Source: a virus (lineage: Duplodnaviria > Heunggongvirae > Uroviricota > Caudoviricetes). Taken from it: DNA of 47,011 nt. The first letter of the stretch is position 1, and each line of letters opens with the position of its first letter. The notes under the pieces are model-generated. The model saw only the letters and a list, made by a program, of their open reading frames with translations. It was not told where the DNA came from and did not search any database. The translations under genes and the position numbers were made by a program. The DNA is taken from the IMG/VR virus record IMGVR_UViG_2534682294_000023. One strand, given 5' to 3'. Below are positions 1 to 39,195 of the stretch, piece by piece.

Positions 1-738
1 TCATTCACTCTCTTTCAAACCAGTTTTAACTGTTTGTGGTTTTGGGTAAGGGTGGACTTTGAATAGCTTTGTGTTGAGGCGTTTTCTGGCCCTCTTGTTC
101 AGAAACCGGATGTAACGAAACTGTCGGAACTTATGCACACTGGCTCTGTCGATATTAGCCCTCAGATGTTCACCTCGTTGTCCGCCTCGTTTAATGGCAC
201 TCCTGCAAATCTCGTGATACCACTCGCCATCAAGTTCATAGAATGTTGATTCATGGCTGCCTACATAATCAAAATTGCTGGCCTGATACACGACACCAAG
301 ACAGCCACAACGCTCATCTGCAAACGACTGAACCCACTGTACCTGCGGATAAAGCTGCCTGATTAGCTTGAGCGCGTAACTGATTGCCCTTGATTCGGAG
401 TTTCTCGGCATACAGTCATGCATCCATAGCCGGTTAAGCTCCATATATTCTCGGTTCTGCGTACCCGTTACGACGCGTGCACCACTGTTTGGGTTAAGGG
501 CGTAACCCCATTGCATTACGCCAACAAGTTCCCGTTCTGAAAATATACCCAGATGAAGGTAGGAATTATTTACGAAACGGTGGCTGTAATGTTTATTGAC
601 GATAACCAGTCTGGCCAGCCAGCAACTTATTGTCTCAACCCGCAACTCACGGGAGCCATAACCAACGATATTGTCGTTATAGCGAATAAGTTCAGGCGTG
701 CTGATGATACGGGATGTGACTTGCTTTCTGTTCCCCAC
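1..738 (-). CDS. mom: Mom-like DNA modification protein
   Basis: 245-aa ORF immediately downstream of and overlapping a Com-like zinc-ribbon ORF at the prophage end; matches the Mu com-mom arrangement. Start codon uncertain. Confidence 0.65.
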
Positions 739-892
739 GACAGGATTTCCTTGTGTATGTGGGGTGCTCTGTGGCGCTCGGAGATGTGATTTGATTGAGG
801 GTTTTACAGCGCGGACATTTTACTTCCAGATAACTGAAACTGGCCCGTGCCAGTAGCTTATTGCAGTGTCGGCACCGTATGTTTCGATACAT
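692..892 (-). CDS. com: Com-like zinc-ribbon translational activator of mom
   Basis: Translation from the ATG at 892 reads [14 protein letters not shown]...KCPRCKT, with the C-x2-C...C-x2-C spacing of Mu Com; overlaps the mom start. Confidence 0.65.
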
Positions 893-1080
893 GGCCGCAT
901 AACCTCCTGCTTTGTTGTTGATGCCTTTCTCATGCAATCGATCGACAAAAACGATCGATTCGATTTGTTTAATTGATACAACAAATAGATTTAAAAGTCA
1001 TCAACAATGATTCAGGGCGGTGATTATTTACTTAAAGAAACGAAGAGTTAGGTGGTGAAAACGATCATAAAATGATCATT
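893..1080. promoter_or_regulatory. Putative com-mom promoter/regulatory region with clustered GATC (Dam) sites
   Basis: GATC at 940-943 and 953-956 (13 bp apart) and again at 1063-1066 and 1074-1077, directly upstream of com; Mu Pmom is controlled by Dam methylation of clustered GATC sites. Confidence 0.4.
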
Positions 1081-1298
1081 TTATTGACTTTTTATACAGT
1101 GAAGGTAGGATCGCGCGTATATGTAGTATGTTTCAAATCAACAGGATACTACATAAAAGTGAAACCCAGCATAGCTGGAACTATGCTGGGTCAATCTGTA
1201 AAAACTTGCATCAATGCTTTACTTCGAGCTCGTGGCGTATCCTATGATATTCCCCGGTCTCCTGTAAAGCAGAGATGCATAAAAAGGAGATCTTTATC

Positions 1299-1469
1299 AT
1301 GGATAAAGAGCCTGTTTGCCCTGCCTGTAAGACTCCCTTACAGCTCATCTATCGCCGTTCTCGATCTCAAAATGGCAAGACATACAAACCAAAAAATGCT
1401 TCCTGTTTCAGGATGCTGATATGTCCTGCCTGTTCTCCCCGGAGGGAAAATACACAAAACGTGCATTAA
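1299..1469 (+). CDS. Hypothetical small protein with C-x2-C ... C-x2-C zinc-ribbon-like motif
   Basis: ATG at 1299 preceded by AAGGAG at 1285-1290; translation MDKEPVCPACKT...CPACSP; divergent from com. Confidence 0.3.
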   Translation: MDKEPVCPACKTPLQLIYRRSRSQNGKTYKPKNASCFRMLICPACSPRRENTQNVH

Positions 1470-1507
1470 CAAATTCACCCGGCAGGGAAACCTGCCGGTC
1501 GGTATTG

Positions 1508-1753
1508 TTACATCATAGTACCGTCAGTTCCGGGCTGAACCGGCTCTGGTTGCTCTACGGGTTGAGGCTCATTTTCCGTGCTGTTTTCAGCCGGAGAACG
1601 ACCAACCATTCGGGCCAGCACTTCATCAACATATGCGTCGATTTGTGCCTCAAAATCCTTGCGAACCTGCGCCTTCAGCACGCGGTTCACTTCTTCAGAA
1701 TAAAGTGCCTGTTTGACAAGCTCTTCAGTAACCGTGCCTTTAATCTCTGGCAT
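1508..1753 (-). CDS. Hypothetical protein (81 aa, acidic, Pro/Glu-rich C-terminus)
   Basis: ORF with GGAGAA RBS directly upstream; co-oriented with and downstream of the esterase and a small membrane ORF. Confidence 0.4.
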   Translation of the reverse strand: MPEIKGTVTEELVKQALYSEEVNRVLKAQVRKDFEAQIDAYVDEVLARMVGRSPAENSTENEPQPVEQPEPVQPGTDGTMM

Positions 1754-1788
1754 GAATATTCTCCTTTCCTTTTCTGGTTCACAAAAAA

Positions 1789-1968
1789 TTAAATCTGACC
1801 GGAGTCTTTCGGCTGCGGCATTACAGCACCGCTTTTTATCTTTTCCTCGGCAGCTGCATCAATTTTATTTCGAAAATAATTGCGAATAATTTTATAACCA
1901 CCGCTGACAAGCAACAGACAACAAACCACCGTGCAGAAATACAGCAGGCAGACGTTTATATATGTCAT
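1789..1968 (-). CDS. Small putative membrane protein (59 aa, one hydrophobic helix)
   Basis: Translated by hand: MTYINVCLLYFCTVVCCLLLVSGG...; sits between the esterase and the 81-aa ORF; below the ORF-track size cutoff. Confidence 0.3.
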   Translation of the reverse strand: MTYINVCLLYFCTVVCCLLLVSGGYKIIRNYFRNKIDAAAEEKIKSGAVMPQPKDSGQI

Positions 1969-37769: not shown

Positions 37770-37779
37770 ACATCCCCCA

Positions 37780-38046
37780 TCAAGCCACTTCTCTGGCGTC
37801 CACCTGGTATCTGCTGGGCCAGATTACAGCAGGTTCAACCCCTATTTTTTCGGCGATGGCGGCTTCGTATTTACGGCACTGGCGGTAAAACACATTGCGC
37901 ATTGATCCGCTTTTTAATCCTAACTCCCTTTCCAGTTCAGGGAGGTCTGTGCCTTTGTTTTCAAGGGCTGCATATACCGCTTTAGCAGACCAGTCACACC
38001 CCTCTCGAACAAACAAATTATTCGATGCTTGTCTGGATACCCTCAT
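37780..38046 (-). CDS. ner: Ner-like DNA-binding regulator
   Basis: 88-aa ORF with DWSAKAVYAALENKG and IWPSRYQ, matching the Ner/Nlp family; first gene of the early operon. Confidence 0.8.
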   Translation of the reverse strand: MRVSRQASNNLFVREGCDWSAKAVYAALENKGTDLPELERELGLKSGSMRNVFYRQCRKYEAAIAEKIGVEPAVIWPSRYQVDAREVA

Positions 38047-38063
38047 TGTGTGATCCTCTCATG

Positions 38064-38107
38064 TTTACCTAAACCGATAATCAAAACCGGTTATCGATTT
38101 AGGTAAA
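38064..38107. promoter_or_regulatory. Palindromic operator in the ner-c intergenic region
   Basis: tttacctaaaccgataa (38064-38080) and ttatcgatttaggtaaa (38091-38107) are inverted repeats with one mismatch, 18 bp upstream of the ner start. Confidence 0.5.
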
Positions 38108-38197
38108 CGATACTCGAACAATAATCCGAGATCAAGCTTTTTGTTCGGTTTATTGTTTGGTTTTTCTTTTGTGCGTTTTTGTAGGAAAACCATTTTT

Positions 38198-38839
38198 ATG
38201 ACAAACAGTTATGAAGAAAAAACCGATGTGAAAAGGGAAAAGTTAGATCGGATTATTAGCCGGAGCACAATAAACCGCTTTGGTGAAAGGCTCAAAGTGG
38301 CCATGAAAGGGATGAGTAATGCCGAATTAGCGAGACGAAGTGGCATGTCCGAAACAACAATAAGGAAATACCTACAGGGAAAGATTTACCCTGCACTTGA
38401 TAGCCTGGCTATTGTTGCTGACGCTTGCGGGGTATCTCTGACTTGGCTCGCGACTGGAGAACAACAAGCAAACCAAACAATAGTTCGAGATGATGCTAAA
38501 CAAAATTATGACAATGAGTATGAATTACTCATTCACTTACTTCATAAGCTCAAAAAAGAAGAATGTGTATTACTGGTTGATTTCATATCGCGTGAGGGCG
38601 TAAACACCCTTATAAGATTGGTGGCAATGAATGCCTCTACGATCAGCCAGGATGCCGTAGAAAGCATCATTGATACGTTACCGTTACGTCCAGTGCTAAA
38701 AAATGCAATAAAAGTAGGAATGGCGGGAAGCGAAGACACTGACAAAGAGATTTTGCGCGTTATTGAGAAGTACAACTCGAGCAATAACGCCACCCAGGAA
38801 TCAAGGGCAGTGACAGTAAAGAAAAATGTTGTTGGTTAA
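38198..38839 (+). CDS. Prophage repressor c (HTH)
   Basis: Divergent from ner; HTH segment NAELARRSGMSETTIRKYLQG. Start set at the ATG at 38198 (AGGA upstream) rather than the TTG at 38141. Confidence 0.7.
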   Translation: MTNSYEEKTDVKREKLDRIISRSTINRFGERLKVAMKGMSNAELARRSGMSETTIRKYLQGKIYPALDSLAIVADACGVSLTWLATGEQQANQTIVRDDAKQNYDNEYELLIHLLHKLKKEECVLLVDFISREGVNTLIRLVAMNASTISQDAVESIIDTLPLRPVLKNAIKVGMAGSEDTDKEILRVIEKYNSSNNATQESRAVTVKKNVVG

Positions 38840-39022
38840 GCGCCATCGCTATCATGAGGTGGTGCTGTAAATACATATAGAGATCATATGACTCATCCCA
38901 AGATAATCACGCTATTGAATAGTAATTCATGATGATTATCATACTGATTATAGTTAGATCGATTATGTGAGCATTTTGGCAGTTTGAAGATGTTTTGAAG
39001 AAGATTTTAAGGGTAAATTAGC

Positions 39023-39195
39023 AGTATCAAATGTGTCGCCGTTTTTTGATCTTTTGACTATTTGTTGAGCAGTCGGTATCAAAAAGAGTTTTCCGTCCGA
39101 ACTATACATCACCTGTTTTATTTCAGCATCTTACAGGTGATTTCACCTCCTTTCACTAAAAGCCTTGTCGGTATCAAATGATTCACCTGGTTACA
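39023..39195. repeat. Prophage terminal region with three copies of a GGTATCAAA-type motif; candidate transposase-binding sites
   Basis: agtatcaaatg at 39023-39033, gtcggtatcaaaaa at 39072-39085 and gtcggtatcaaatg at 39167-39180; element ends ...ggttaCA at 39194-39195. Confidence 0.35.

Follow-up and report, generated by a model that had tools for sequence, protein, structure and literature searches.

The window that we analyzed, by which we mean the whole stretch of 47,011 nucleotides, contains at positions 1–39195 a Mu-like transposable prophage whose genes run in the order mom to c, as a preliminary description of the sequence had proposed. When the 54 proteins of Mu were compared with the window by tblastn, 39 had colinear homologues (26–75% identity), all on the minus strand from mom (1–738) to ner (37780–38046), and Pfam searches recovered Mu-transpos_C, Phage-MuB_C, Mom and Resolvase domains. 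The nearest known system was prophage Sp18 of E. coli O157:H7 Sakai (NC_002695.2 5040971–5079729), grouped with the Sp18-like Mu phages of STEC; its gene order is that of the window element, and the two share 97–99% DNA identity over 35.8 kb (window positions 1–1767, 2972–29871 and 30539–37643). The window element is an intact-looking copy from this family, a well-known group of Mu-like transposable prophages in pathogenic E. coli.

At one end of the element, the DNA-modification gene mom (minus strand) is complete, with a Pfam Mom match at E 8e-77, 75.5% identity to Mu Mom and 98% identity to ECs_4998 of Sp18; com, the translational activator of mom, lies at 692–892 on the same strand (47% identical to Mu Com, 98% to ECs_4997). 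A homologue of ECs_4996 on the plus strand (1036–1469), which is accessory, aligned as two HSPs in different frames; it is the sole frameshifted ORF in the element, and PGAP marks a frameshift in it also in strains 6817 and 61_150228. Next comes a cargo block absent from Mu (1508–4083, minus strand), which comprises DUF826 (1508–1753), DUF1378 (1789–1968) and a NanS-p-type 9-O-acetyl-sialate esterase (2026–4083; Pfam SASA and DUF6645) that matched NanS (PDB 3PT5) at E 3.7e-110 and NanS-p (6YP6) at E 1e-41. Sakai Sp18 shares com-mom and the position of the nanS-p/DUF1378/DUF826 cargo, although its esterase (ECs_4993) is just 60% identical.

The gin-type DNA invertase gene (4174–4734, minus strand; 75% identical to Mu Gin; Pfam Resolvase and HTH_7) lies beside an invertible tail-fibre segment (4790–6186) that is flanked by a 182-nucleotide inverted repeat (4797–4978 and 6000–6181) and by gix-like sites (4790–4815 and 6161–6186) with the common core TCGGTTTACGGGA. 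Within the segment, on the plus strand, are an alternative fibre C-terminus (4797–5159) and the only tail-fibre assembly gene of the element (5239–5760). In the present orientation the tail-fibre gene S (5795–6706, minus strand) encodes 303 amino acids (47% identical to residues 1–191 of Mu S; phrog_1833, E 4e-166), and the assembly gene does not follow it but lies on the opposite strand. Sakai Sp18 has the segment in the same orientation as the window, whereas in 61_150228 it is flipped. With its fibre genes arranged as in the window, Sakai Sp18 is nonetheless packaged.

The remaining late genes, all on the minus strand, were recognized by colinear tblastn matches to Mu and alignment to Sp18. 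Baseplate, tape-measure, tube and sheath genes (the equivalents of Mu gp48 to gp38; 6706–16628) were 35–61% identical to those of Mu and 99–100% identical to those of Sp18, full length and without stops. Head and packaging genes (equivalents of Mu gp37 to gp27; 16629–25994) encode adaptors, major head protein T, protease I, G, gp30, portal and terminase, and are followed by gp26 and gp25 homologues, a TraR/DksA-like gene (phrog_54, DksA-like), Rz/Rz1 spanins and endolysin (25997–27975; homology to Mu and Sp18). A single late activator of the Mor/C family lies at 28047–28472 (phrog_532); Mu C (39% identity) and Mu Mor (26%) both matched at this one locus. Sp18 proteins aligned with the window over essentially their whole length and without stops, except for c, ECs_5772 (61 amino acids) and ECs_4996. 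The preliminary judgment that the structural ORFs look intact was borne out, and A and B are intact as well: none of the lysis, head, tail or transposition genes is shortened or frameshifted, and all are at 90–100% identity to Sp18.

The early accessory region (28542–34672, minus strand) contains gemA (28542–29051), gam (32792–33322), gp11 and gp12 homologues and many further ORFs without assigned function; one stretch of it (29872–30538) is a cassette not alike in Sp18. B, a MuB-type AAA+ transposition protein (34675–35607, minus strand), was 49% identical to MuB over 300 amino acids, with Pfam matches to Phage-MuB_C (PF09077, E 2.5e-25) and AAA_22, and adjoins A, a Mu-type DDE transposase of 696 amino acids (35679–37769, minus strand; Mu-transpos_C, PF09299, E 1.5e-17; HTH_Tnp_Mu_1, E 9e-5). 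In A, residues D309 and D375 were invariant in the alignment with MuA D269 and D336, and E415 falls within an IIERLN motif matched to MuA PVERAF (E392). The first ~62 amino acids of A form an allele-specific, Mu-Ialpha-like winged-helix domain that is divergent from Sp18 and co-varies among alleles with ner, which encodes an 88-amino-acid early regulator (minus strand; Pfam HTH_35, E 1.7e-20; 37.5% identical to Mu Ner and 39% to Sp18 Ner). With a DDE transposase, a MuB-type B and a late module in Mu order, the element is a Mu-like transposable phage in the broad sense.

The left (c-side) end of the element is exactly 39195, where BLAST matches to independent insertions also end. The terminus (39194–39199) consists of CA at 39194–39195, which reads TG on the minus strand, followed by TTCT (39196–39199), expected to be one copy of a 4-bp target duplication inside dinF, a gene recognized by its MatE domain and by annotation. 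Read on the minus strand the element begins TGTAACCAGGTG, and it shares the terminal sequence TGTAACCAGGTGAATCATTTGATACC with Sakai Sp18. Near this end, three TTTGATACY repeats in one orientation on the minus strand (39023, 39075 and 39170; 39023–39178) are candidate transposase-binding sites L3, L2 and L1; the motif matched five times in the window (0.66 expected), with three of the five within 175 bp of the end, and it recurs three times at the right end of Sp18 and of the 6817 element and at the left end of a Salmonella relative. The termini and TTTGATACY sites of Sakai Sp18 are the same, with 81% identity at the left end, but that prophage sits in sorM. The mom-side end is cut off by the start of the window; comparison with Sp18 and strain 6817 placed 133 bp after the mom stop codon outside it, out of a full element of ~39.3 kb. 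As neither the right end nor the second target-duplication copy falls within the window, completeness of the window copy is not provable.

Mu makes 5-bp target duplications and has TG...CA termini. In contrast, all six independent Sp18-like insertions for which both junctions were available, at six loci, showed perfect 4-bp target duplications and termini TGTAACC...CGCTATA, that is, TG...TA; these data come from the six relatives, the window itself showing the left junction only. Insertion in these relatives is thus at unrelated sites with short duplications, and each end carries three TTTGATACY sites. The flanks of the left end vary among genomes (bglJ, glrR, cho, betT, creC, yfcU, rihA, sorM and dinF), and Sp18-like phages have been reported at variable loci (PMC10132054, PMC7430833). 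Sp18 itself was predicted to be intact and was neither induced by mitomycin C nor circularised, but its DNA was packaged spontaneously (PMC2669165); the literature describes the family as intact, transposing and packaged. Mobility is thereby documented at the level of the family, and the window copy itself is presumably active. The earlier suggestion that the prophage may be inducible has to be qualified, given a repressor without an S24 domain and the behavior of Sp18, which is packaged spontaneously yet does not respond to mitomycin (PMC2669165).

We compared the element more closely with Mu and D108 (genus Muvirus), with which it shares the architecture c / ner-A-B-early-activator-lysis-head-tail-invertible fibre segment-gin-com-mom and a transposase that combines an Ialpha-like N-terminus with a DDE core and a C-terminal domain of Mu type. 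DNA similarity to Mu is almost lacking: megablast against Mu and D108 found ~72% identity across only 2% of the first 25 kb. Overall protein identity to Mu was ~50%, and that of transposase A just 22%. The preliminary description had the gene order following Mu 'almost gene for gene', which holds for the late genes from lysis to mom (colinear at 34–75% identity) and for the early region only in part; 15 of the 54 Mu proteins lacked a tblastn counterpart in the window, there is one Mor/C activator where Mu has two, and extra cargo genes include a 3.3-kb block between gin and com. On the ~50% protein identity of the whole genome and the 22% identity of A, we rejected the reading of a close relative of Mu that had exchanged its repressor. 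Mu proper, or membership of the genus Muvirus (Mu, D108 and SfMu), was likewise rejected on the 2% DNA match, the type of repressor and the 4-bp duplications and TG...TA ends of the relatives. The proposal of 'a Mu relative with a different immunity specificity' accordingly survives in that the immunity is unlike that of Mu, with the element being a member of the Sp18 family and not a close relative of Mu.

The c gene (38198–38839, plus strand) encodes a repressor of 213 amino acids in which a disordered linker joins an XRE HTH (residues ~22–86) to a C-terminal domain that is helical. As described earlier, the HTH is of XRE type (Pfam HTH_3, PF01381, E 3.7e-12) and the length is 213 to 232 amino acids, depending on whether translation starts at ATG (38198) or TTG (38141; 232 amino acids); homologues favour the ATG. 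The protein matched phrog_3037 over its full length (residues 3–203, E 1.3e-54), a family that takes in the alleles of the window, Z570, the Sp18 type and Salmonella, whereas c of Mu and D108 belongs to phrog_7148. Its dissimilarity to Mu c was confirmed: Mu c gave no tblastn match in the window and no blastp match to the ORF at a cutoff as loose as E 10, and D108 c gave neither match. In the AlphaFold model the N-domain (pLDDT ~90) resembled the DNA-binding domains of 434, P22 C2 and SinR by Foldseek and the C-terminal domain was all-helical; as modeled, the fold is the 434/P22-C2-like, five-helix HTH_3. Pfam returned no match to Peptidase_S24 and hence no self-cleavage domain of the LexA/lambda-CI type; this lack, together with an XRE/434-type HTH, was common to all three immunity types compared. 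In Mu, the c DNA-binding domain is a winged helix homologous to the MuA N-terminus (40% identical, E 2e-13), whereas c of the window is XRE and blastp against its own A gave no hit (E 0.99). The C-terminal half of Sp18-type c matched phrog_7148 at E 7e-8 and that of window c at E 0.04 (hhalign E 0.003, probability 11%), so the C-terminal domain alone may be distantly related to Mu c. Left-end XRE HTH repressors also occur in Pseudomonas transposable phages (the D3112/JBD/H70 group, 'CI-like repressor'), at 34–36% identity to the N-terminal half of window c, but similarity ends after the HTH (query residues ~5–108) and the rest of those phages has no DNA relation to the window apart from a terminase patch.

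Relative to Sp18, the window has a replaced immunity cassette (37644–39020, boundaries at ~37643 and ~39021) that comprises c, the operators, ner and the first ~62 amino acids of A; we regard its boundaries, like the family and fold of the repressor, as shown. XRE repressors are common to all three types compared; the divergence that matters is that of this cassette from Sp18. Sp18-type c (ECs_4943) was ~24% identical to window c and gave no tblastn match in the window, and ECs_4944 (ner) was 39% identical. The window element is thus a different immunity type within the Sp18 family, and the difference takes in the A N-terminus, as it does between Mu and D108. Against the commoner Z570 allele (c 59% identical), breakpoints were sharp at ~38108 and ~38640, such that only the DNA-binding part of c and its operator differ; the two alleles have in common ner, the palindrome described below, the N-terminus of A and the last third of c. 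The recognition helices are SETTIRKYLQGK against SEATVRNYRKGK, with substitutions throughout the HTH.

Two repeats lie between c and ner. Just upstream of ner, a palindrome with 18-nucleotide arms (GTTTACCTAAACCGATAA-N10-TTATCGATTTAGGTAAAC; 38063–38108) is a candidate Ner operator or A enhancer site; it is kept with the same ner and A N-terminus in Z570 and Salmonella, and the Sp18 type has another palindrome at the equivalent position. A c-allele-specific inverted repeat (AACAATAATCCGA-N15-TCGGTTTATTGTT; 38117–38157) is a candidate c operator, kept in Salmonella relatives whose HTH is identical and exchanged in Z570, whose HTH is different. Both assignments draw on co-variation among just four alleles, in which the operator-like repeats follow the c HTH. 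The second repeat overlaps a weak candidate early promoter (Pe; just 8/12, judged by eye), a promoter scan between c and ner having returned none at threshold.

By homology, A (DDE) and B (AAA+) would act on termini with three TTTGATACY sites each, integrating and replicating the genome at target sites that are essentially random. The single Mor/C-type activator would switch on the lysis, head and contractile-tail genes, the Gin-type invertase would flip the 1.4-kb segment so that the tail-fibre C-terminus alternates, and Com/Mom would modify DNA. We infer that c would hold lysogeny by binding the allele-specific repeat 38117–38157 over the early promoter, and that Ner, possibly with the Mu-Ialpha-like A N-terminus, would use the adjoining palindrome 38063–38108. 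A tentative extension, which we think has the smaller chance of being right, is that the Sp18 lineage was rewired: c would have swapped its winged helix for an XRE domain, probably retaining a Mu-c-like C-terminal domain, the Ialpha-like N-terminus of A would co-vary with ner and the palindrome and not with c, and A would cut with a 4-bp stagger at TG...TA ends. If so, c and A would no longer compete for one operator/enhancer through homologous domains, and natural recombinants such as the window versus Z570 would change repressor specificity with the enhancer system untouched.

Since c, the operators, ner and the A N-terminus are replaced as one cassette, the window phage is, from its sequence, most likely heteroimmune towards both Sp18 and Mu; as the XRE HTH is unrelated to the DNA-binding domain of Mu c, shared immunity with Mu is hardly possible. 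We consider it unlikely that the cassette difference is without functional effect, so that the phage would share its immunity with Sp18 or the Z570 allele. All of the alleles do fall in one repressor family, phrog_3037, and the window and Z570 have ner, the palindrome and the N-terminus of A in common, as well as the last third of c, but c is only ~24% identical to the Sp18 type and 59% to Z570, the recognition helix differs, the c-proximal inverted repeat is replaced with each allele and kept in Salmonella with the same HTH, and the recombination breakpoints bracket precisely the DNA-binding part and its repeats.

That the element is a defective, immobile remnant (a cryptic prophage), intact in looks only, is quite improbable. 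The right end outside the window, the frameshifted ORF, the fibre and assembly genes at present on opposite strands and termini of TG...TA in place of the canonical TG...CA could each be taken as decay; yet the TG...TA ends and the fibre arrangement are common to six independent, evidently transposed copies, the frameshifted ORF is accessory and frameshifted in other copies too, A, B and all lysis, head and tail genes retain full length at 90–100% identity to Sp18, Sp18 DNA is packaged (PMC2669165), and the same immunity allele occurs at three loci in three strains. It would be very surprising if the XRE ORF were an unrelated regulator or antitoxin-like cargo, with immunity coming from elsewhere: no toxin partner gene adjoins it, even though XRE HTH proteins include antitoxins and c had weak PDB matches to HipB and HigA, and the element offers no other repressor candidate. 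The ORF has the canonical c position by the left end, divergent from ner-A-B, in E. coli and Salmonella elements (the latter at three different loci), repressors annotated in Pseudomonas transposable phages are similar to it and lie at the equivalent position, and the Sp18-type C-terminal half matches the Mu c family. We hold, with high confidence, that the window contains an Sp18-family element that entered dinF by transposition, Mu-like by homology, with a replaced immunity cassette and likely heteroimmune.

The phage family was present in 213 of 5426 complete E. coli genomes (~4%), counting those with at least 80% of the first 25 kb of the window, and the window's cassette in two of the 5426, with a 76%-identical relative in Salmonella prophages. 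Novelty of the repressor did not stand by the refuting condition that the preliminary description itself had set, near-identity to a known repressor: the 1426-bp region from ner through c to the left end was 100% identical in DNA in E. coli 61_150228 (NZ_AP026099.1) and 99.7% identical in CI5 (NZ_CP011018.1), with the repressor annotated as WP_000185422.1. The repressor module is rare yet already sequenced, so the element is essentially ordinary; both family and allele are known already and little is new. Overall, the observation in the preliminary description was confirmed and its interpretation partly supported. The cassette is found at three sites, namely dinF (window), rihA (61_150228) and yfcU (CI5). 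The 61_150228 element is 99.5% identical over window positions 25000–39195, differing in its location and flipped invertible segment, and the early genes of the CI5 element are more divergent.

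Genes on the - strand filled position 1 to about 38046 as one long block, and beyond them lay one divergent ORF on the + strand, that of the repressor c, which ends at 38839 and encodes 232 residues if translated from the TTG at 38141 or 213 if translated from the ATG at 38198. By tblastn, 39 of the 54 annotated Mu proteins (NC_000929) matched the window, in strictly colinear order: mom (1-738, 75.5% identity to Mu) with com adjoining in order; gin (75% identity to Mu Gin); the S/U tail-fibre, baseplate, tape-measure, tube and sheath genes; the head, portal and terminase genes (terminase 72% identity); gp27-gp25 and lys; gemA, gp12, gp11 and gam; and B (49%), A and ner (37.5%). 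These matches, together with the Pfam domains that we found (Mom, Resolvase/HTH_7, Mu-transpos_C, Phage-MuB_C plus AAA, and HTH_35), bore out the Mu-like gene content from mom to c that had been noticed from the sequence. The 15 Mu proteins for which tblastn returned no counterpart in the window were c, kil, gp6-9, gp13-15, gp18-20, gp23, gp24 and S′. Mu Mor and Mu C both matched one and the same window gene (28047-28472, - strand), such that, unlike Mu with its two activators, the window had only one detectable activator of the Mor/C family. A TraR/DksA-like zinc-finger gene in the lysis/packaging region (26573-26800, - strand) was another difference, being absent from Mu. Between the G and I homologues lay a non-coding gap of 176 bp (20074-20249), at the place where Mu has its strong gyrase site. 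Scanning the whole window for tRNAs and for Rfam families at gathering threshold found nothing.

The element was not a close relative of Mu itself. Among phage records, the only long matches were two regions annotated as 'inserted Bacteriophage Mu-like phage' inside Stx phages, and Mu, D108 and SfMu each matched over no more than 2% of the query. In 213 of 5426 complete E. coli genomes, 80% or more of the window's first 25 kb was present, at many chromosomal positions. Aligning the window with Sp18, the Mu-like prophage of E. coli O157:H7 Sakai, gave 98.8% identity over 1-1767, 97.2% over 2972-29871, 98.1% over 30539-37643 and 81% over the last 174 bp of the element. Sp18 has been described as a Mu-like, predicted intact prophage with an invertible host-range region distinct from that of Mu, and as a phage that does not circularise and is not mitomycin-inducible, with DNA that is efficiently packaged (PMC2669165). 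Sp18-like phages occupy variable loci in O157 and CC119 STEC, including sites inside other prophages (PMC7430833, PMC10132054), with one to three copies per CC119 genome (PMC10132054), and loss of Sp18 has been noted during strain construction (PMC13502914). The element is therefore a member of an already known and published family. The preliminary description was right in kind, in that the prophage is Mu-like and intact-looking and has a non-Mu repressor, but it missed the Sp18 family. Little here is new: as a mobile part of STEC genomes, Sp18-like Mu phages are already recognised, and the exact immunity allele of this copy is already in RefSeq.

Searching every Sp18 protein against the window showed that A (94% identity), B (99.7%) and all of the lysis, head and tail proteins (90-100%) aligned end to end without stops, and the corresponding window frames were open at the expected length. 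The catalytic residues of A were also kept, with D309 and D375 invariant relative to D269 and D336 of MuA, and E415, within an IIERLN motif, corresponding to E392 of MuA. The suggestion that A, B and the structural genes are intact thus held up when stops were looked for. Only two Sp18 proteins, c (ECs_4943) and ECs_5772, had no match in the window, and four others had diverged, namely ner (39% identity), ECs_4959 (50%), the esterase ECs_4993 (60%) and ECs_4994 (59%). The homologue of ECs_4996 (1036-1469, + strand) was split over two frames, and PGAP also marks a frameshift in this gene in two other strains. An early cassette of two ORFs of unknown function (29872-30538, - strand; phrog_6158 and phrog_6925) replaced the 201-bp stretch of Sp18 that contains ECs_5772.

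On the - strand the element started with TGTAACCAGGTGAATCATTTGATACC at 39195. BLAST matches from many independent E. coli copies ended at 39195-39198, and five other copies opened with the identical first 16 bases next to unrelated flanks. Because the sequence directly to the right of 39195 was the 3′ two-thirds of dinF (MatE), followed by yjbJ (CsbD), zur (FUR) and yjbM (DUF2713), the phage was inserted inside dinF, and the window is best annotated as an Sp18-family prophage disrupting dinF rather than as a Mu variant. At the other end, the window started exactly at the mom stop codon, and alignment with Sp18 showed that position 1 corresponds to base 134 of the element. It follows that 133 bp containing the three right-end repeats lie outside the window, and the 'near-complete' state of the prophage is an effect of the window cut. 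Read from c to mom, these 133 bp are expected to end in ...GCCGCGCTATA, with the AGAA/TTCT duplicate and then the 5′ part of dinF next to them. The host flank (39196-47011) also contained, from ~42.6 kb, a remnant of another prophage, with genes for a PrtN-like activator, an exoribonuclease, a YfbR-like protein and DUF2303/YfdQ, which matched mEp460-type lambdoid phages.

The motif TTTGATACY occurred five times in the window (0.66 expected); three of these copies, all oriented alike, fell in the 175 bp next to the left end, and the right ends of Sp18 and of the related element in E. coli strain 6817 had three more. This layout mirrors the L1-L3 and R1-R3 sites of Mu, although the consensus is different. 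Mu generates 5-bp target duplications and has TG...CA ends. Both junctions could be read for six Sp18-like insertions, including that of Sakai, and all six had a 4-bp duplication (TAAA, AAAG, CACC, TGCG, TATG and CATC) and the termini TGTAACC...CGCTATA, that is, TG...TA. The alternative of 5 bp, with the element ends shifted, was rejected, as no register fit the six junction pairs. The depositors of LC727881 likewise annotated a 4-bp duplication, and we found no discussion of it for Sp18-like phages in the literature searched. The window contains only the left junction, at which the expected copy of the duplication is TTCT (39196-39199).

This copy is set apart by recombination within the Sp18 family that exchanged its immunity cassette (c, its putative operators, ner and the start of A). 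Divergence from Sp18 began near 37644, within the 5′ end of A, and continued to about 39020, and the two A proteins were near-identical beyond their first ~62 residues. Mu and D108 offer a parallel, as the difference between them, visible in the same alignment, also includes the N terminus of A. The whole 1426-bp region from ner through c to the element end was present in only two of the 5426 complete E. coli genomes, those of strains 61_150228 (100% identity, in rihA) and CI5 (99.7%, in yfcU). A second allele, exemplified by that of O157 Z570, was found in a further 34 records. It was the same through A, ner and the palindrome between ner and c, diverged abruptly between about 38108 and about 38640, a stretch taking in the DNA near the c promoter and the N-terminal two-thirds of the c protein, and was then identical again to the end; overall, the Z570 repressor was 59% identical to that of the window. 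The remaining genomes had only the last ~190 bp in common with the window, at ~81% identity, and the one that we inspected, 2013C-3252, carried Sp18-type c and ner. The first ~62 residues of A (37584-37769) thus co-varied with ner (37780-38046) and the palindrome (38063-38108), and not with the repressor. Given the cassette swap, the window phage is, judging from sequence, probably heteroimmune to Sp18. Several copies may be able to coexist in one genome because the family comprises at least three immunity types, their cassettes sharply bounded.

The repressor had been described as unlike Mu c, and indeed neither tblastn nor blastp detected similarity between window c and the c proteins of Mu or D108. 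Window c belonged to phrog_3037 ('transcriptional repressor'), matching it over the full length (E 1.3e-54), and Mu and D108 c belong to phrog_7148. Because the Sp18-type and Z570-type repressors likewise belong to phrog_3037, a non-Mu repressor is common to the three types compared and not peculiar to this copy. Also missed in the preliminary description was that the same allele occurs in genomes already sequenced and that all three types are XRE-type. Homologues of c began at the ATG of the 213-residue form. Pfam placed an HTH_3 domain at residues 55-103 of the 232-residue frame (about 36-84 of the 213-residue protein) and found no Peptidase_S24 domain in c. PDB sequence matches were to the DNA-binding domain of the 434 repressor (E 0.005). 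An AlphaFold model of c had a confident five-helix N-terminal domain (pLDDT ~90), a disordered linker (91-104) and a helical C-terminal domain (pLDDT 60-88); Foldseek searches with this model returned only HTH domains (434, P22 C2, SinR and C-protein), leaving the C-terminal domain with no informative PDB match. Relatives of c reached Salmonella, Klebsiella, Proteus, Providencia and others, with N- and C-terminal domains visibly shuffled among members. A Salmonella homologue was 76% identical; at three different loci it took up the same position, beside ner, A and B that were each ~76-78% identical. Annotated left-end repressors of Pseudomonas transposable phages were 34-36% identical to the N-terminal half of window c.

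A link to the C-terminal domain of Mu c came from the Sp18-type allele, the C-terminal half of which matched positions 73-171 of the phrog_7148 profile (E 7e-8). The C-terminal half of window c (38498-38839) gave only a weak match to phrog_7148, in the same register (E 0.04), and a profile comparison between the c family and Mu/D108 c using hhalign gave an E value of 0.003 and a probability of 11%. These similarities are suggestive of a history in which the C-terminal domain may derive from a Mu-c-like ancestor, with the DNA-binding domain alone having been exchanged.

Two candidate control sites lay between ner and c. The first, a palindrome (38063-38108) with arms of 18 nt lying 17 bp upstream of where ner starts, was kept near base-for-base in the window, Z570 and Salmonella elements, which also have the 88-aa Ner type and the A N terminus in common; the Sp18 type had a different palindrome at this position. 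The second site, the inverted repeat AACAATAATCCGA-N15-TCGGTTTATTGTT (38117-38157), was kept in the Salmonella elements, in which the HTH of c is identical, and was replaced by another inverted repeat in Z570, in which the HTH differs. A weak sigma-70 promoter candidate on the - strand (TTGATC-17-TATCGT, 8/12), placed by eye only, brackets the first arm of this repeat; a promoter/terminator scan of 37700-39250 returned nothing between c and ner, and its overall yield did not exceed that of shuffled sequences. In the arrangement that we envisage, c would bind the inverted repeat and thereby turn off the early promoter, and Ner, perhaps with an Ialpha-like domain of A, would use the palindrome. 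The Mu repressor and transposase N terminus share the operator/enhancer and are homologous (40% identity), whereas c and A of the window were unrelated (E 0.99). This uncoupling of the repressor from the transposase N terminus is a modest, testable point for Mu specialists; the 4-bp duplication is the other, and these are the only points that such a specialist might follow.

Between gin and com, a 3.3-kb cargo block carried, at 1508-4083 on the - strand, genes for a NanS-p-type 9-O-acetyl-sialate esterase, a DUF1378 protein and a DUF826 protein, and was only ~60% identical to the Sp18 version. The esterase had SASA and DUF6645 domains and matched PDB entries 3PT5 (E 4e-110) and 6YP6 (E 1e-41). 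Such genes otherwise typify the late region of Stx phages, for which nanS-p-type cargo has mostly been discussed, and one paper on nanS-p diversity did not mention Mu-like phages. That a Mu-like prophage carries the nanS-p sialate esterase here is an annotation of practical value. The Gin-invertible segment (~4790-6186) was bounded by a 182-nt imperfect inverted repeat and by gix-like sites with the common core TCGGTTTACGGGA, which we located by inspecting where the inverted repeat ends; searching with the Mu gix consensus, allowing three mismatches, gave no match. The segment held only one fibre-assembly gene, and in its present orientation left a 303-aa fibre gene with no assembly gene downstream. 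This orientation was the one found in Sakai, and the segment was flipped in 61_150228.
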